A DNA stretch of 64,000 nucleotides from assembly GCF_964213995.1 (NCBI RefSeq), contig NC_135801.1, positions 40,548,001 through 40,612,000 of the forward strand. Reading direction: 5' to 3'. The notes under the pieces are model-generated. The model was not told the DNA's origin. It saw only the letters and a list, made by a program, of their open reading frames with translations, and searched no databases. Both the position numbers and the translations under genes were made by a program. This document shows positions 3,968 to 52,554 of the stretch, piece after piece. The stretch comes from Mustelus asterias. Its lineage: Eukaryota. Position 1 is the stretch's first letter; each line of letters begins with the position of its first letter.

Positions 3968-4034
3968 GATGTGGAGATGCCGGTATTGGACTGGGTCCAA
4001 CCTTTAACCTGGTGTTGTGAGACTTCTTACTGTG
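3968..4034. mobile_element. Penelope-like family A mini-insertion (inverted terminus plus subterminal piece)
   Basis: gatgtggagatgccggtattggactggg is the reverse complement of the family 3' end. It is joined to ctttaacctggtgttgtgagacttcttactgtg and flanked by gtgttatactcaga (3956-3969) / gtgttatatgcaga (4032-4045). Confidence 0.75.
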
Positions 4035-4949
4035 TTATATGCAGAACCATTATATTCCAACTGTGGACAGACTGAACAGGGCTTGCATTCCTGCTTCCAT
4101 ATCATCATGGATGGTGTAATGCCAAAAACATTAAACCCAAAAGTGCAATGCTTTTGCTTTTTCCCCAAAATCCTGGTTTTTAAGGTTACAGAACATTAAT
4201 GCTACATATTTATTCCAGTTTTGTGGTCTTTGTAAATTACAAGTTTTTATTTTAGAAAAGGCTATATGGTTCTGTTAACTCCAGTTCCGTACAGATTTTT
4301 CCACGAACATTCTCAAATACTCACTTCTAGTCAAGTACTAAGCTTGTTGTTGAATAATATCACTTTTCATTTCCTGTTGCAACTGTTTTCATTTTCTTTA
4401 CTTTTTCAATGTACACTGCTTCTAAAGTCTAGGTTTTTGGTTTCAGGATTCATACATGCTGTTTTACAGGCTTTTCCTCCAACGTGCATATTCACATATT
4501 TGAAATCAAAGTTCACTGCACAAATTCAGAATCTAACTTGTTCTTTGCCAAAACCTCAAAACTTCGAAACTCTTTTTCCTCTTGCTACATCTCTCAGGTT
4601 TTAAAAACAGAAGAGAACGGTGGTATTTCAGTTCTTATTAAATTGTTGCCACCAAACATCCTCTCCAGAGTTCAGCTAGAGTAACCTGATCCATTTCCAG
4701 CCAGGAGTCCCAACCTGTCAGGAAATCATTGATGGTCAGCAGCTTGCCTCACTTCTCTAGTCAAAAAGCAAGATAAATGCAGGTGAGCAGCCCTGCTAGT
4801 TCAGAGAAGTTTGGAAAAGGATGAGGCTCCATGGAGGCATTTGACATGTGCTAGTGCTAGGAAGCTTAAAAAGATGGCAGAGTTCTCTCCCACAGGACAA
4901 TCTCTCCAGCCTGTCCTTGTCCACATGGCATGCCCTTGCATTGAGGAAA

Positions 4950-7407: not shown

Positions 7408-8626
7408 CTAGCATGTTTTTGTGAAGGGGAGGTCGTGCCTCACTAACTTGATCGAGTTTTTCGAGGAAGTGATGGACTTCAGTAAAGCCTTTGACAAGAT
7501 ACCTCATGGTAGACTGGTATAACAGGTGAAGTTACACAGGATCAGAGGAGAACTGGCAAGATGGATACAGAACTGGCTTGGCCATAGAAGACAGAGGGTA
7601 GCAGTAGAGGGTCCTTTTCTGAATGATCCACAGGGATCAGTTCTGGGACCTTTGTTGTTCGTAGTATATATAAATGATTTGGAGGAAAATGTAGCTGGTC
7701 TGAGTAATAAGTTCGCAGACGACACAAAAATTGGTGGAGTTGCGGATAGTGAAGAGGATTGTCAGAGGATACAGCAAAATATAGACTGGGTGACTTGGAT
7801 GGAGAAATGGCAGATGGAGTTTAATCCGGACAAGTGTGAGATAATACATTTTGGAAGGTCCAATGCATGTAGAAATTATACAGTAAATGGTAGAACCCTT
7901 AGGAGTATTGACAGGCAGAGATCTGGGCGTACATGTCTACTGATCACTGAAAGTGGCAACGCAGGTGGATAAGGTAGTCAAGAAAGCACACGGCATGCTT
8001 GCCTTCATCGGTCGGGGCATTGAGTATAAAAATTGGCAGGTCATGCTGCAGCTGTACAGAACCTTAGTTAGGCCTCATTTAAAATATTGTATACAATTCT
8101 GGTCGCCACACTACCAGAAGGATGCTTTGGAGAGGGTATGGAAGAGGTTTACCAGGATGTTGCCTGGTCTGGAGGGTATTAGCTACGAGGAGAGGTTGGC
8201 TAAATTTGGTTTGTTCTCACTGAAACAACGGAGGTTGAGGGGTGACCTGATAGAGGTTTACAAGATTATGAGTGGCATGGACAGAGTGGATAGTCAGATG
8301 CTCTTGCCTAGGGTAGAAAAGTCAAGTACTAGGGGACATAGGTTTAAGGTGCGTGGGGAAAAGTTTAGACAAGATGTGCGAGGCAAATGTTTTTTTTTTA
8401 CACAGAGGGTGATGAATGTGTGGAACACGCTGCCTGGGGAGGTGGTGGGAGCAGGTACGAAAGCGGCATTTAAGGGGCAACTAGACGAATACATGAATAG
8501 GATGGGAATGGAAGGATACGGACTCCGTAAGTGCACACGGTTTTAGTTTAGGCAGGCATCATGATCGGCGCAAGCTTGGAGGGCTGAAGGGCCTGTTCCT
8601 GTGCTGGATTGTTCTTTCTTTTCTTT
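7408..8626 (+). mobile_element. CR1 LINE, RT to 3' end, frameshifted
   Basis: ORFs 7526-7972 (PQGSVLGPLLF…KFADDTK) and 7953-8546 (LYRTLVRPHL…QFWSP), followed by a CR1 3' UTR. Confidence 0.95.
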
Positions 8627-8771
8627 CACTGTCCTCAAAGAACTTATAAAATATTTTGCAATAGTGTCATTGTATCTAAATACACAGAGTTATTTCCACC
8701 AGATATATGTTTTAGACCATGTGAATCATTGAAACATTTCTATTCCTCTGTCCCGATTAAAATGACCTTCC

Positions 8772-9462
8772 AACAGAACAAAGAACAATACAGCACAGGA
8801 ACAGGCCCTTCGGCCCTCCAAGCCCGCGCCGCTCCCTGGTCCAAACTAGACCATTCTTTTGTATCCCTCTATTCCCACTCCGTTCATGTGGCTATCGAGA
8901 TAAGTCTTAAACGTTCCCAGTGTGTCCGCCTCCACCACCTTGCCCGGCAGCGCATTCCAGGCCCCCACCACCCTCTGTCTAAAATACGTCCTTCTGATAT
9001 CAGTGTTAAACCTCCCCCCCCTCACCTTGAACCTATGACCCCTCGTGAACGTCACCACCGACCTGGGAAAAAGCTTCCCACCATTCACCCCATCTATACC
9101 TTTCATAATTTTATACACCTCTATTAGGTCACCCCTCATCCTCCGTCTTTCCAGTGAGAACAACCCCAGTTTACCCAATCTCTCCTCATAACTAAGCCCT
9201 TCCATACCAGGCAGCATCCTGGTAAACCTCCTCTGCACTCGCTCTAAAGCCTCCACGTCCTTTTGGTAGTGTGGCGACCAGAACTGGGCGCAGTATTCCA
9301 AATGCGGCCGAACAAACGTTCTATACAACCGCAACATCAGACCCCAACTTTTATACTCTACGCCCCGTCCTATAAAGGCAAGCATGCCATATGCCTTCTT
9401 CGCTACCTTCTCCACCTGTGCCGTCACCTACAAACCTTCTCCATCTGTGCCGTCACCTTCAA
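8772..9462 (-). mobile_element. CR1 LINE, young 5'-truncated copy
   Basis: ORF 8846-9427 is an uninterrupted CR1 ORF2 C-terminus, CpG-rich, with the 3' tail at about 8772. Confidence 0.95.
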
Positions 9463-14080: not shown

Positions 14081-14263
14081 GCTTAGAAGAAAAAGTAATT
14101 TTATGAATTTTGAGATACAGAATGGAATCTTATCAGCCATTATCAGGTCAGGTTCAAAAGTCTCCAATTTGTAAGTTTTGTGATTGCTCTTTTCCACAGC
14201 AAGTCAATTAAGTTCCCCATCAATCAGGGTGGATGCAGTGAAGGACCCTGGCAGGACTCTCAA

Positions 14264-14503
14264 TAAGAAGTTTAACAACACCAGGTTAAAGTCCAACAGG
14301 TTTATTTGGTAGCAAATGCCACTAGCTTTCAGAGCGCTGCCCCTTCATCAGGTGGAGTGGCAGATCTCCACTCCACCTGACGAAGGGGCAGCGCTCCGAA
14401 AGCTAGTGGCATTTGCTACCAAATAAACATGTTGGACTTTAACCTGGTGTTGTTAAACTTCTTACTGTGTTTACCCCAGTCCAACGCTGGCATCTCCACA
14501 TCA
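14264..14503 (+). mobile_element. Penelope-like family A fold-back insertion
   Basis: 97-bp inverted arms (14264-14360 / 14368-14464, 3 mismatches) plus a 3' tail ending CTCCACATCA. Flanked by the 13-bp direct repeat caggactctcaat (14252-14264 / 14502-14514). Confidence 0.9.
14373..14409 (+). ncRNA. Minimal type I hammerhead ribozyme motif (PLE-type)
   Basis: CCAC-CUGACGA-A-GGGGC(AGC)GCUCC-GAAA-GC-UA-GUGG gives the conserved core, stem II and stem I CCAC/GUGG, with stem III reduced to palindromic AGCU. Confidence 0.75.
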
Positions 14504-14570
14504 GGACTCTCAATGGCAGTGTTCTGAGGGAAACAAATCCAGTGTGAAGAAAGCAAGCACTGCAGAATAG

Positions 14571-23226: not shown

Positions 23227-23413
23227 TCATGATGTGGAGATGCCGGCGTTGGACTGGGGTAAACACAGTAAGAAGTTTAACAACACCAGGTTAAAGTCCA
23301 ACAGGTTTATTTGGTAGCAAAAGCCACACAAGCTTTCGAAGCTCTAAGCCCCTTCTTCGACCTGAAGAAGGGGCTTAGAGCTTCGAAAGCTTGTGTGGCT
23401 TTTGCTACCAAAT
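23227..23413 (-). mobile_element. Penelope-like family A fold-back insertion
   Basis: Perfect 50-bp inverted arms (23309-23358 / 23364-23413), family 3' end at about 23230, and the 12-bp direct repeat ataccaatttag (23215-23226 / 23414-23425). Hammerhead core CTGAAGA…GAAAGCTT at 23362-23392. Confidence 0.9.
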
Positions 23414-23556
23414 ATACCAATTTAGGGCATGGCATTTTGTAGTAAGCACTAGGAAATATATAGCCGCTTTCCAACTTGACTGAATAGTTTCAACCTTTAG
23501 CTTTACAAAATGTTTTACAAACTACCAGTCAATAATCAAGAGTAGATAAAGGGAGA

Positions 23557-30660: not shown

Positions 30661-30932
30661 AATCTTAGGTCCAATTGGCCAGACTTTACACGTGGCTGCT
30701 TCATAGGGTCCAGCCTGATCACGTGGCCCGCAAAGGATTACTCCTTAAAAAGGGGTAAATGGGAATTGTAGATGAATTACAGGAAGATATGGACTAACAA
30801 TCAGAGGAGCATAGAGAAGGAATGGGCTCAAAAAATTATGATGTGGAGATGCCTGCGTTGGACTGGGGTAAACACAGTAAGAGTTTTAACAGTACCAGGT
30901 TGAAGTCCAACAGGTTTATTTGATAGCAAATG

Positions 30933-30969
30933 CCATTAGCTTTCGGAGCGCTGCTCCTTCGTCAGATGG
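30933..30969 (-). ncRNA. Minimal type I hammerhead ribozyme motif (best-preserved copy)
   Basis: Minus strand reads CCAU-CUGACGA-A-GGAGC(AGC)GCUCC-GAAA-GC-UA-AUGG, with stems I and II fully Watson-Crick. Confidence 0.78.
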
Positions 30970-31119
30970 AGTGGATATCTGCTCTCAAACAGGGCATAGA
31001 GAGACACAAAATCAAGTTACAGAATACTGATTAGAATGCGGATCTCTACAGCCAACCAGGTCTTAAAGATACAAACAATGTGAGTGGAGGGAGCCACTGT
31101 TTGAGAGCAGATATCCACT

Positions 31120-31156
31120 CCACCTGACGAAGGAGCAGTGCTCCGAAAGCTAATGG
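31120..31156 (+). ncRNA. Minimal hammerhead motif, opposite arm
   Basis: CCAC-CUGACGA-A-GGAGC(AGU)GCUCC-GAAA-GC-UA-AUGG, with one stem I mismatch. Confidence 0.6.
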
Positions 31157-31614
31157 CATTTGCCACCAAATAAACCTGTTGGACTTTAACCTGGTGTTGT
31201 TAAAACTCTTACTCAAAGAATTAGCCAAACCTGAGGTGCATGGGTTACCAGGACGTGACAGCATATACATTAGGCCATTAAAATAACAGAACAGATAGAA
31301 GAGAATTGTACGCACAATGCTTCAATCCTCCTTAAGTACTCAAATTGTACCAGACTCCAGAATTGACAATCTTTTATCAAATAATGAATAGAAAGACAAC
31401 TTATTCATAATGAACACTTAATGGTCCGATGTAATTTTTGTGAGCAAACTCTCCAGATTCATAATTTGAGATAAAATCAATTAATATTTAGAAATGCATG
31501 GGTTAATCATGGTTGGCCACACAGATTCTGTTAAAAATAAGTCATGATTGATAAATATAAAACTACATACAATAATTCCCAGTTATTTAATCCTTCGGAC
31601 ATTCTATTAGATAA

Positions 31615-35620: not shown

Positions 35621-35912
35621 TTTTGGAACCATTGTGACCAAGTGGAGTGCAGATAAATTTTTTACTACTTTCACACACACTGCAGGAGCAGAGTTCTACC
35701 ATCACTGCAACTTGGTACTACTGTCTATCATATGCTATACAAGTTTGTTTACTGGAGCCTGAAACTGCCTTTTATGACAGCCACAAAGGCCAAAGGGGAT
35801 CATTAACAGATCCAACTGTGGGCTTTGTGGAGTACAAGCTGCCTCATTGAGCAAGCAGAGATTTGCCCAATGGGAAGCAGTCAGCAGGGATTTTTAAGCC
35901 TGTAACGTTACC

Positions 35913-36548
35913 CAGTAAGAGGTCTCACAACACCAGGTTAAAGTCCAACAGATTTACTTGGTAGCAAAAGCCACTAGCTTTCAGAGCGCTCGCTGCTCCT
36001 TCGTCAGGTAAGTGGGATTTCAGTTCACAAACAGGGCATATAAAGACACAAACTCAATTTACAAAATAATGGTTGGAATGCGAGTCTTTACAGGTAATCA
36101 AGTCTTAAAGGTACAGACAATGTGAGTGGAGAGAGGGTTAAGCACAGGTTGAAGAGATGTGTATTGTCTCCAGCCAGGACAGTTAGTGAGATTTTGCAAG
36201 CCCAGGCAAGTCGTGGGGGTTACAGATAGTGTGACATGAACCTAAGATCCCGGTTGAGGCCGTCCTCATGTGTGTGGAACTTGGTTATCAGTCTCTGCTC
36301 AGTGACTCTGCGCTGTCGTGTGTCATGAAGGCCGCCTTGGAGAACGTTTACCTGAAGATCAGAGGCCGAATGCCCATGACCGCTGACGTGTTCCCCCCAC
36401 AGGAAGAGAACACTCCTGTTGCCTGGTGATTGTTGAGCAGTGTTCATTCATCTGTTGTCGTAGCGTCTGTACGGTCTCCCCAATGTACCATGCCTCGGGA
36501 CATCCTTTCCTGCAGCGTATCAGGTAGACAACGTTGGCCGAGTTGCAA
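35913..36548 (-). mobile_element. Penelope-like family A, GIY-YIG endonuclease end plus 3' region
   Basis: CNSANVVYLIRCRKGCPEAWYIGET.QTLRQ.MNEH…EQRLITKFHTHEDGLNRD (GIY-YIG). Hammerhead motif at 35971-36011 (-). Confidence 0.92.
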
Positions 36549-42790: not shown

Positions 42791-42918
42791 AAAAGTTGCT
42801 AGCAGTAAGGTTCTCAGGGCTACTTATGAAGAGTTTTTCACACTATCCAGATAAGACAGTTACCTTCTCAGACATGAGAATGTACATCGGTCTCATTTGG
42901 CCAGTGACGTAGCAGGAA

Positions 42919-45570
42919 TTGATGCTACTGGACTGGCAGTTAAACATCCAGGGATTCACAACCTATCGAAAAGACAGAGGGGTGGGTAGAGGGGGCGGGG
43001 TTGCCTTGTTAATTAGAAATGAAATTAAATCAATAGCACTAAACGACATAGGGTCAGACGATGTGGAGTCTGTGTGGGTAGAGTTGAGGAACCACAAAGG
43101 CAAAAAAACCATAATGGGAGTTATGTACAGGCCTCCTGACAGTGGTCAGGACCAGGGGCACAAAATGCACCACGAAATAGAAAGGGCATGTCAGAAAGGC
43201 AAGGTCACAGTGATCATGGGGGATTTCAATATGCAGGTGGACTGGGTAAATAATGTTGCCAGTGGACCCAAAGAAAGGGAATTCATTGAATGTTTACAGG
43301 ATGGCTTTTTGGAACAGCTTGTGATGGAGCCCACGAGGGAACAGGCTATTCTGGACTTAGTGTTATGTAATGAGCCAGACGTGATAAAAGATCTTAAAGT
43401 AAGGGAACACTTAGGAAGCAGTGATCATAATATGGTAGAATTCAGTCTGCAATTTGAAAGAAGGAAGGCAGAATCAGATGTGAAGGTTCTACAGTTAAAT
43501 AAAGGTAATTACAGGCGCATGAGGGAGGAACTGACAAAAATCGACTGGAAGCAGAGCCTAATGGGAAAGACAGTAGAACAGCAATGGCAGGAGTTTCTGG
43601 GAGTAATTGAGGACACAGTGCAGAGGTTCATCCCAAACAAAAGAAAGGTTATCAGAGGGGGGATTAGGCAGCCATGGCTGACAAAGGAAGTCAGGGAATG
43701 CATCAAGGCAAAAGAGAGAGCCTATAATGTGGCAAAGAGTAGTGGGAAGTCAGAAGATTGGGAAGGCTATAAAAACAAACAGAGGATAACAAAGAGAGAA
43801 ATAAGGAAGGAGAGGATCAAATATGAAGGTAGGCTAGCCAGTAACATTAGGAATGATAGTAAAAGTTTCTTTAAATACATTAAAAACAAACGGGAGGCAA
43901 AAGTAGACATTGGGCCGCTCCAAAATGACGCTGGTAATCTAGTGATGGGAGACAAGGAAATAGCTGAGGAACTTAATAAGTACTTTGCGTCAGTCTTCAC
44001 AGTAGAAGACATGAGTAATATCCCAACAATTCAGGAAAGTCAGGGGGCAGAGTTGAATATGGTTGCCATCACAAAGGAGAAAGTGCTAGAGAAACTAAAA
44101 GGTCTGAAAATTGATAAATCTCCGGGCCCAGATGGGCTACATCCTAGAGTTCTAAAGGAGATAGCTGAAGAAATAGTGGAGGCGTTAGTTATGATCTTTC
44201 AAAAGTCACTGGAGTCAGGGAAAGTCCCAGAGGATTGGAAAATCGCTGTTGTAACCCCACTGTTCAAGAAGGGAACAAGAAAAAAGATGGAAAATTATAG
44301 GCCAATTAGCCTAACCTCAGTTGTTGGCAAAATTCTAGAATCCATCGTTAAGGATGAGATTTCTAAATTCTTGGAAGTGCAGGGTCGGATTAAGACAAGT
44401 CAGCATGGATTTAGTAAGGGGAGGTCGTGCCTGACAAACCTGTTAGAGTTCTTTGAAGAGATAACAAATAGGTTAGACCAAGGAGAGCCAATGGATGTTA
44501 TCTATCTTGACTTCCAAAAGGCCTTTGACAAGGTGCCTCACGGGAGACTGCTGAGTAAAATAAGGGCCCATGGTATTCGAGGCAAGGTACTAACATGGAT
44601 TGACGATTGGCTGTCAGACAGAAGGCAGAGAGTTGGGATAAAAGGTTCTTTCTCAGAATGGCAACCGGTGACAAGTGGTGTCCCGCAGGGTTCAGTGTTG
44701 GGGCCACAGCTGTTCTCTTTATATATTAACGATCTAGATGACGGGACTGGGAGCATTCTGGCCAAGTTTGCCGATGATACAAAGATAGGTGGAGGGGCAG
44801 GTAGTATTGAGGAGGTGGGGAGGCTGCAGAAAGATTTAGACAGTTTAGGAGAGTGGTCCAAGAAGTGGCTGATGAAATTCAACGTGGGCAAGTGCGAGGT
44901 TGTACACTTTGGAAAAAAGAATAGAGGCATGGACTATTTTCTAAACGGTGACAAAATTCATAATGCTAAAGTGCAAAGGGACTTGGGAGTCCTAGTCCAG
45001 GATTCTCTAAAGGTAAACTTGCAGGTTGAGTCCGTAATTAAGAAAGCAAATGTAATGTTGTCATTTATCTCAAGAGGCTTGGAATACAAAAGCAGGGATG
45101 TACTTCTGAGGCTTTATAAAGCACTGGTTAGGCCCCATTTGGAGTACTGTGAGCAATTTTGGGCCCCACACCTCAGGAAGGACATACTGGCACTGGAGCG
45201 GGTCCAGCGGAGATTCACACGGATGATCCCAGGAATGGTAGGCCTGACATACGATGAACGTCTGAGGATCGTGGGATTATATTCATTGGAGTTTAGGAGG
45301 TTGAGGGGAGATCTGATAGAAACTTACAAGATAATGAACGGCTTAGATAGGATGGACGTAGGGAAGTTGTTTCCATTAACAGGGGAGACTAGGACGCGGG
45401 GGCACAGCCTTAGAATAAAAGGGAGTCACTTTAGAACAGAGATGAGGAGAAATTTCTTCAGCCAGAGAGTGGTGGGTCTGTGGAATTCATTGCCACAGAG
45501 GGCTGTGGAGGCCGAGACGTTGAGCGTCTTCAAGACAGAAATTGATAAATTCTTGATTTCGAGGAATTAA
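42919..45570 (+). CDS. CR1 LINE ORF2 (APE endonuclease plus reverse transcriptase), 883 aa uninterrupted, N-terminally truncated
   Basis: APE motifs RKDR…GGGV, YRPP, MGDFN, LDLVL and SDH; RT motifs NYRPISLTS, QHGF, DFQKAFD, GVPQGSVLGP and FADD. The first few codons come from flanking DNA. Confidence 0.93.
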   Translation: MMLLDWQLNIQGFTTYRKDRGVGRGGGVALLIRNEIKSIALNDIGSDDVESVWVELRNHKGKKTIMGVMYRPPDSGQDQGHKMHHEIERACQKGKVTVIMGDFNMQVDWVNNVASGPKEREFIECLQDGFLEQLVMEPTREQAILDLVLCNEPDVIKDLKVREHLGSSDHNMVEFSLQFERRKAESDVKVLQLNKGNYRRMREELTKIDWKQSLMGKTVEQQWQEFLGVIEDTVQRFIPNKRKVIRGGIRQPWLTKEVRECIKAKERAYNVAKSSGKSEDWEGYKNKQRITKREIRKERIKYEGRLASNIRNDSKSFFKYIKNKREAKVDIGPLQNDAGNLVMGDKEIAEELNKYFASVFTVEDMSNIPTIQESQGAELNMVAITKEKVLEKLKGLKIDKSPGPDGLHPRVLKEIAEEIVEALVMIFQKSLESGKVPEDWKIAVVTPLFKKGTRKKMENYRPISLTSVVGKILESIVKDEISKFLEVQGRIKTSQHGFSKGRSCLTNLLEFFEEITNRLDQGEPMDVIYLDFQKAFDKVPHGRLLSKIRAHGIRGKVLTWIDDWLSDRRQRVGIKGSFSEWQPVTSGVPQGSVLGPQLFSLYINDLDDGTGSILAKFADDTKIGGGAGSIEEVGRLQKDLDSLGEWSKKWLMKFNVGKCEVVHFGKKNRGMDYFLNGDKIHNAKVQRDLGVLVQDSLKVNLQVESVIKKANVMLSFISRGLEYKSRDVLLRLYKALVRPHLEYCEQFWAPHLRKDILALERVQRRFTRMIPGMVGLTYDERLRIVGLYSLEFRRLRGDLIETYKIMNGLDRMDVGKLFPLTGETRTRGHSLRIKGSHFRTEMRRNFFSQRVVGLWNSLPQRAVEAETLSVFKTEIDKFLISRN

Positions 45571-51369: not shown

Positions 51370-52554
51370 CTTATGAGGGCATAAGATTCTTATGAAAGAT
51401 GCCTTCATAACAACATATACACAGGATCTGCTCAGATGAGGAGGATCGCAACAGACACCTCCAGACGCTGAAAGATGCCCTCATAAGAACAGGATATGGC
51501 GCTCAACTCATCGATCGACAGTTCCGACGCACCACAGCCAAAAACCACACCGACCTCCTCAGAAGACAAACATGGGACACGGCGGACAGAGTACCCTTTG
51601 TCGTCCAGTACTTCCCCGGAGCGGAGAAGCTACAACATCTTCTCCAGAGCCTTCAACATATCATCAATGAAGACAAAGGCCATACCCACACCCCCACTTC
51701 TTGCCTTCAAACAATCACGCAACCTCAAACAGAGCACTGTCCGCAGCAATCTACCTAGCCTTCAGAACAGTGACCACGACACAACACCACACAACCCTGC
51801 CACAGCTACCCCTGCAAGACGTGCCGGATCATCGACATGGATGCCATCATCTCACGTGAGAACACCATCCACCAGCTACACGGTACATACTCTTGCAACT
51901 CGGCCAACATTGTCTACCTGATACGCTGCAGGAAAGGATGTCCCGAGGCATGGTACACTGGGGAGACCATGCAGACGCTACGATAACGGATGAATGAACA
52001 CCGCTCGATAATCACCAGGCAGGAGTATTCTCTTCCTGTTGGGGAACACTTCAGCAGTCACGGGCATTCGGCCTCTGATCTTCAGGTAAGCGTTCTCCAA
52101 GGCGGCCTTCACGACACACGACAGCACAGAGTCGCTGAGCAGAGACTGATAGCCAAGTTCCGCACACATGAGGACGGCCTCAACTGGGATTTTGGGTTTG
52201 TGTCACACTATCTGTAACCCCCACGACTTGCCTGGGCTTGCAAAATCTCACTAACTGTCCTGGCTGGAGACAATACACATCTCTTTAACCTGTGCTTAAT
52301 CCTCTCTCCACTCACATTGCCTGTACCTTTAAGACTTGATTACCTGTAAAGACTCGCATTCCAACCATTGTTTTGTAAATTGAGTCTGTGTCTTTATATG
52401 CCCTGTTTGTGAACAGAACTCCCACTCCTCCTGAAGGAGCAGCGCTCTGAAAGCTTGTGGCTTGTGCTACCAAATAAACCTGTTGGACTTTAACCTGGTG
52501 TTGTGAGACTTCTTACTGTGCTTTCCCCAGTCCAACGCCGGCATCTCCACATCA
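51370..52554 (+). mobile_element. Penelope-like family A, 5'-truncated (RT thumb/linker, GIY-YIG, 3' terminus)
   Basis: RICSDEEDRNRHLQTLKDALIRTGY…VPFVVQY…IVYLIRCRKGCPEAWY.GET…EQRLIAKFRTHEDGLN. Ends GGCATCTCCACATCA. The hammerhead core at about 52431 has a 3-nt deletion. Confidence 0.93.

Follow-up and report, generated by a model that had tools for sequence, protein, structure and literature searches.

A hairpin-forming PLE insertion in Mustelus asterias and the head-to-head, one-tailed layout of its family

A fold-back element at positions 14252-14514 of the Mustelus asterias stretch analyzed here (64,000 nucleotides; hereafter the window) was found to be a real but ordinary insertion product of an EN+ PLE. 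The element is a single non-coding, 5'-truncated insertion of putative Penelope/Poseidon type, and we consider it likely that it arose at a 13-nt staggered cut, where both strands primed at two fixed sites in the RNA separated by about 37-39 nt. Our best reading of the family as a whole is that the two strands of the target each prime cDNA synthesis at one of two fixed sites, which probably lie on the same RNA. The 14252-14514 copy itself is most likely inert.

Layout of the element and its relatives in the window

The element spans about 240 bp, is non-coding, and lies between two 100% identical copies of a 13-bp TSD, CAGGACTCTCAAT (Table 1). The arms called by the program (14261-14360 and 14368-14467) are 96% complementary across a 7-nt gap and include 4 nt lying in the TSD; without these, they measure 96 nt each (14265-14360 and 14368-14463) and differ by three mismatches, two of which represent CpG decay. 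A tail of about 39 nt is found at one end, and the folding energy of the hairpin is -185.2 kcal/mol (z -25). Six of seven bases match the RNA at the TSD start, and likewise 6/7 at the TSD end. The initial annotation had described a fold-back with a TSD, inverted arms, a 7-nt loop, and a ~39-nt tail, which was borne out with arms of 96 nt rather than 97 bp. Its attribution to a PLE was also confirmed. Identity of the arms to the 3' ends of the copies at 35910-36009 and 52414-52552 is 86-88%. All four insertion traits are present, namely a parent with an RT plus a GIY-YIG at its C-terminus, an inverted 5'-truncated partner, a one-sided tail of 30-40 bp, and a TSD.

Table 1 Features of the fold-back element and of related copies in the window
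Feature	Positions	Strand	Remarks
Left TSD, 13 bp	14252-14264		
Inverted tail-less arm	14265-14360	-	Outer end is the family short end, ~37-39 nt before the tail end
Junction	14360-14367	+	1-nt microhomology, G14360 being compatible with either arm
Loop CAGATCT	14361-14367	+	Parent sequence of the direct arm
Direct arm	14360-14463	+	3' UTR / pseudo-LTR of the parent PLE subfamily
PLE tail	14464-14503	+	Last 2 nt in common with the TSD
Right TSD, 13 bp	14502-14514		
Minimal hammerhead motif	14373-14409	+	Predicted cut after 14405
Minimal hammerhead motif	14355-14319	-	Cut predicted between 14323 and 14322; CpG decay has left a G10.1-U11.1 wobble
Sister-subfamily fold-back	23230-23418	-	55-nt arms; 12-bp TSD read by eye
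Sister-subfamily fold-back	30839-31213	-	117-nt arms, 104-nt spacer, one hammerhead per strand
Tail-less 5'-truncated PLE copy	35910-36548	-	Endonuclease remnant
Tailed 5'-truncated PLE copy	51370-52554	+	GIY-YIG coding region broken

Five other copies in the window match the arms. Relatives beyond the two GIY-YIG elements already listed in the initial annotation were found at 23230-23418, where the end of the short arm lies about 74 nt away from the tail end, off the usual site, at 30839-31213, and at 3969-4036. The last is a rearranged PLE end, with tail and core opposite in orientation and no hammerhead. An open 915-aa ORF at a locus elsewhere in the genome sample (L099) shows 87% identity to the remnant at 51774-51983; for this ORF, the profile hits were RVT_1 (4e-10) and GIY-YIG (2.8e-5, above the cut-off). 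This open PLE frame (L099:5192-7936) sits on the tail-less arm, and the arms of L099 are 99.6% identical, so the insertion is very young. In a pLTR-ORF copy (L117), the tail directly joins the ORF, the last A of the tail being the A of the start codon. The window also contains an 885-aa ORF with endonuclease/exonuclease/phosphatase and RVT_1 domains, corresponding to a LINE ORF2 (42913-45570, + strand), and an old 1.5-kb inverted structure of LINE-like fragments that are about 70-78% complementary (7948-9432).

One tail per pair and coupled arm lengths across the family

The family sample comprised 251 loci (1.87 Mb) and yielded 531 arms with the 32-nt core; two loci repeating the finding and 30 loci picked for likeness were kept out of it. 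The 3' ends of the arms fall into two groups, one at the tail end and one about 28-40 nt before it. Among 252 head-to-head candidates, 143 were closed by a TSD of at least 10 nt (mode 12-13), while the number of TSDs was 0 in a control with shifted boundaries. In 143/143 of these pairs, a tailed arm is joined to a tail-less one, a count that covers the TSD-closed pairs, the other 109/252 candidates having no TSD. Detection was independent of the tail for 46 of the 143 and tail-anchored for 72; 0/72 carried two tails, an arrangement that would be common in this subset if the ends were independent. In loci from a search with the 29-nt tail end, an inverted partner was found for 64 of the 85 tailed arms, and 49 were TSD-closed. 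It should be noted that pair detection needs the 32-nt core in both arms, so ends like that of 23230-23418 are missed. In contigs (of unconfirmed kind) from four other organisms, loose ends were seen at the tail end, and for three of the four at the short end as well, from which the two-ended pattern extends beyond the M. asterias genome.

Arm lengths were analyzed in 126 simple pairs, 17 complex pairs having been dropped from the 143. The lengths of partner arms correlate (rho 0.82), the two arms lie within 12 nt of each other in 65/126 pairs versus 15 by permutation (maximum 29), and when both exceed 130 nt, 17/43 pairs are within 20 nt versus 2.8 expected. Junctions are blunt, have a few common bases, or contain templated inserts. 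Two near-perfect palindromic insertions with matched arm lengths were also observed, of 4.1 kb (L153:4909-9021) and 2.0 kb (L096:2875-4881).

Pairs of this kind might also arise by snap-back self-priming, in which a single cDNA or antisense template would fold back at a small palindrome and be copied, with the endonuclease trimming one end to leave a one-sided tail. Self-priming readings have been offered before (PMC3846280, PMC8557442), and they agree with the 65 near-symmetric pairs, with the palindrome AGATCT at the 14252-14514 junction, and with the presence of the same junction geometry in 12 of its 30 closest copies. Yet the tailed arm is longer in 22 of the 126 pairs and the tail-less arm in 27 (extreme, 2788 versus 561 nt); since either arm can be longer, the tail-less arm is not a snap-back copy of the tailed one. 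Indeed, in those 27 pairs, the tail-less arm is longer by more than 20 nt and holds sequence absent from its partner. Snap-back also fits poorly with near-symmetric pairs in which neither arm is regularly longer (26 / 15 / 36), with the templated inserts at many junctions, and with target microhomology at both outer ends: in exact-TSD pairs, at least 2 nt of target/RNA microhomology were found at 39/84 tail ends and 33/84 short ends, with 18% expected. We regard it as an unlikely origin of the element, which could nonetheless explain a minority of symmetric copies. Another alternative retains two-ended priming but on two RNAs or two pLTRs, lengths being equalized by synchronous stopping or trimming. 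The protein is a predicted dimer (PMC11167929), and eight pairs (L008, L010, L013, L020, L021, L055, L200, and L028) have a recurring 2-4 nt loop-II indel between their arms, the tailed arm being the longer in seven and the tail-less arm in one; such indels fit two templates as well as slippage. Against this, partner arms are much closer to each other than random pairs (3.0 versus 7.9 differences per 80 nt; 79 pairs), L055 carries the same one-base deletion in both arms, and lengths match even at 1000-2000 nt. We hold the use of two templates to be possible, if doubtful, and keep to priming by both target strands at two fixed sites, probably on one RNA.

Insertions of different subfamilies were found independently at one LINE site (L177, L178, L183, L186, L187, L191, L193, L195, and L197-L200). 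This hot-spot site lies in an abundant LINE and resembles the PLE start-codon region; judging from the sequences, it is likely set by primer-template pairing. A recurring 3' flank, TGACTACAGGGGAGG, was considered as a mark of a chimeric family and rejected, as it is a preferred target within a LINE.

It had been proposed as an alternative that elements such as 14252-14514 are protein-free, MITE- or retrozyme-like dependants of the PLE. A self-propagating family of this kind, in which the whole hairpin would be copied, was not supported. The 3.68-Gb genome contains 48,621 occurrences of the 29-nt tail end and 1,322 of the hammerhead 35-mer of this copy, while its junction 31-mer occurs once; with so many tail ends for a single junction, the element is not a self-copying MITE or retrozyme. 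Short junctions were distinct in 25/25 cases in a sample not picked for likeness to 14252-14514, arm lengths form a continuous range from about 30 to 3000 nt, and the copy is a single inverted unit, with no tandem array and no same-strand hammerhead units, whose ribozyme is predicted to be buried. What favors propagation as a unit is that the 30 closest copies have 27 distinct junction strings, one occurring three times and one twice, and that the total length is 200-280 bp in 36/143 pairs. The common junction geometry is found across several subfamilies, however, each with its own loop sequence, and so reads as a hot spot. Self-propagation is, in our view, extremely improbable. A host role for the hairpin, in which its dsRNA would trigger ADAR or small RNAs to act on the parent element, would draw on the stable duplex of about 96 bp that it would form if transcribed and on the tens of thousands of similar copies; as an insertion by-product fully explains the layout and the arms are CpG-decayed like neutral DNA, we consider such a role very unlikely.

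Hammerhead motifs and the 5' ends of the arms

The plus-strand motif reads CCAC CUGACGA A GGGGC-AGC-GCUCC GAAA GC UA / GUGG, and the minus-strand motif is identical save for a G-U in place of the conserved G10.1-C11.1 pair. The presence of a minimal hammerhead on each strand, as initially annotated, is thus upheld by motif pattern but not by the Rfam hammerhead models, which gave no match at the element at E<=5 and only hairpin look-alikes. In 16 hand-picked related copies, 97% of the stem cells were paired and two pairs showed a compensatory change, which supports a putative hammerhead fold without proving it, these copies being related. The hammerhead core is intact in 183/226 arms. For the whole element, the predicted pairing probability of stems I and II is 0 on both strands, and in a single arm folded alone the ribozyme stems form poorly (0.03-0.10). 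The antisense arm would be the first to be transcribed on either strand. The model predictions therefore agree with the annotated masking of the ribozyme: if transcribed either way, the hairpin would bury it.

Both arms span the hammerhead cut site, so the template RNA would have been uncut. No sharp peak was seen at that site, where 0/343 arms end exactly and 27/343 within 5 nt. A genome pattern search for breaks at or just above the cut site gave 2,374 matches. Among the matches listed were 11 copies of the element's own type: five break exactly at the cut, two fit via a chance match, and the other four are spread over four upstream positions, in what is a small hand count without a downstream control. 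Set against the lack of a peak in the 343 arms, this tally suggests that arm starts are modestly enriched at the hammerhead cut site.

The 5' ends of the arms (343 arms; 85 pairs) are most frequent at 30-49 nt above the predicted cut site and become fewer after 50; among unpaired arms, old subfamilies absent from the references inflate part of the +30 to +39 peak. In the ACTCAC/ACTTAC subfamilies, a TATA lies 29 nt above an A at +35 in 34/47 long arms. Breaks just before the A of ACTCACCTG gave 2410 matches, with a preceding G in 78/100 among the matches listed; for the neighboring position, one base further in, the corresponding values were 921 matches and 39/100 among those listed. After removal of the words explained by the other arm, the G was found in 27/44 cases versus 21/69 in the control (p 0.002, hand counts). 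The control value agrees with base composition, and 40 of the 44 loci were then read, giving 24/38 (also hand counts); two further control patterns were swamped by matches of other subfamilies. In L305 and L306, the order is TSD, one G, element. For L1 and SVA, it is accepted that an untemplated G indicates copying of the cap (PMC4859970), and the extra G before the initiator-like A in the TATA-bearing sister subfamilies is likely a cap copy, as far as sequence can tell. The subfamily group of 14252-14514 is without TATA in 24/25 long arms, its ends are spread from +39 to +46, and no clear G signal was seen at the same A in 155 matches. The cap reading is therefore confined to the TATA-bearing sister subfamilies.

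The putative RNA start ACU(C/U)ACCUG of these subfamilies (for example at window 36003-36011, - strand) resembles the 5' end of U1 snRNA. The opposite strand of the ACTCAC/ACTTAC arm start reads as a consensus 5' splice site. This U1/splice-site likeness may only reflect the constraints of initiator and hammerhead.

Proposed insertion route and comparison with known systems

The steps that follow are read from genomic end-points, which cannot show enzymatic steps. The protein, perhaps as a dimer, would nick both target strands; one nick would prime at the start codon, where the tail ends, and the second immediately upstream of the tail. Both cDNAs would probably be copied from one RNA, passing through the uncut hammerhead, and would end close to each other, in many cases shortly 5' of the ribozyme; in the TATA-bearing subfamilies, this stop looks like a capped mRNA start. 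End-joining with short microhomology or templated inserts would then join the cDNA ends head to head. A more specific version, in which the family would record the PLE cycle in the genome, one protein dimer copies one RNA twice from the two fixed sites into the two strands of the cut, and the templates in vivo include capped as well as ribozyme-cut RNAs, seems to us evenly poised between right and wrong. With the binding site at the start codon, an ordinary capped mRNA would serve as template, only the 5' UTR and the cap would be copied to give hairpins of about 240 bp, full-length moves would need a read-through tandem transcript, and a smaller class would start at the hammerhead cut.

In L1 twin priming, the element RNA is also primed by the second strand of the target, and an inversion results via end-joining; this second priming uses variable internal sites and duplicates no sequence. 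The PLE family differs in having two fixed starts, from which one sequence is copied twice. Twin priming of L1 is treated in PMC4859970. No twin priming or cap-derived G was found for PLEs in the titles and abstracts searched, a search in which the subscription literature was thinly covered.

The EN+ PLE insertion unit has been described as an inverted 5'-truncated pLTR, a one-sided tail of 30-40 bp, and a TSD (PMC8557442), and the same layout is known from Adineta vaga Pen2/Pen2a (PMC3846280) and from D. virilis, with a 34-bp repeat (PMC2377424). The element shares with these EN+ PLEs the head-to-head arms, the tail at one end, the TSD, the junction palindrome, and a parent with an RT plus a GIY-YIG at its C-terminus; unlike the published units, it is minimal and has no ORF between its arms. 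The strict one-tail rule, the coupled arm lengths, and the cap-like G are absent from the published layout passages considered here, and in those of PMC8557442 the origin of the tandem and inverted structures and of the tail is still undefined.

The Poseidon protein of the anole (Anolis carolinensis) nicks and extends both strands in vitro, with two start sites that bound the tail and uncut RNA as the main template (PMC11167929). The M. asterias family, as read here, resembles this system in having two start sites that bound the tail, nicking and extension of both strands, and an uncut RNA template. In the anole, the start codon is overlapped by the hammerhead and the two sites are located within the ORF, at 111-118 nt (PMC11167929), whereas the M. 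asterias tail ends at the start codon. The main text of that study does not link the two sites to an inverted arm, and its passages considered here report no target homology, while the M. asterias family has 1-3 nt of microhomology. Since no between-strand difference in start site is seen there in vitro, the strict one-tail rule is not explained by it.

Metazoan PLEs carry minimal type I hammerheads, with dual opposite-strand motifs 100-700 bp apart (PMC4209133). Those of 14252-14514 are alike in their short stem I, the bulged base before stem II, and the palindromic AGCU for stem III; being on opposite strands, and known here from sequence pattern, they could not dimerise within one transcript. 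Non-LTR retrozymes are PLE-related and non-coding, with a type I hammerhead, in tandem units with same-strand ribozymes (10.64898/2026.07.22.740005). The element has the first three of these properties but, unlike retrozymes, consists of one inverted insertion whose junction is unique.

The 14252-14514 locus is ordinary, and its value lies in the family statistics, which favor two-ended priming on one RNA. The family counts lead to predictions for Poseidon in vitro, namely one start site per strand, one RNA, an uncut template, and copying up to the cap. If true, the cap-like G would map the PLE promoter from DNA alone, and cap copying would explain why PLE-rich genomes are full of short hammerhead-bearing hairpins, for which the family statistics point to capped 5' UTRs as the source.
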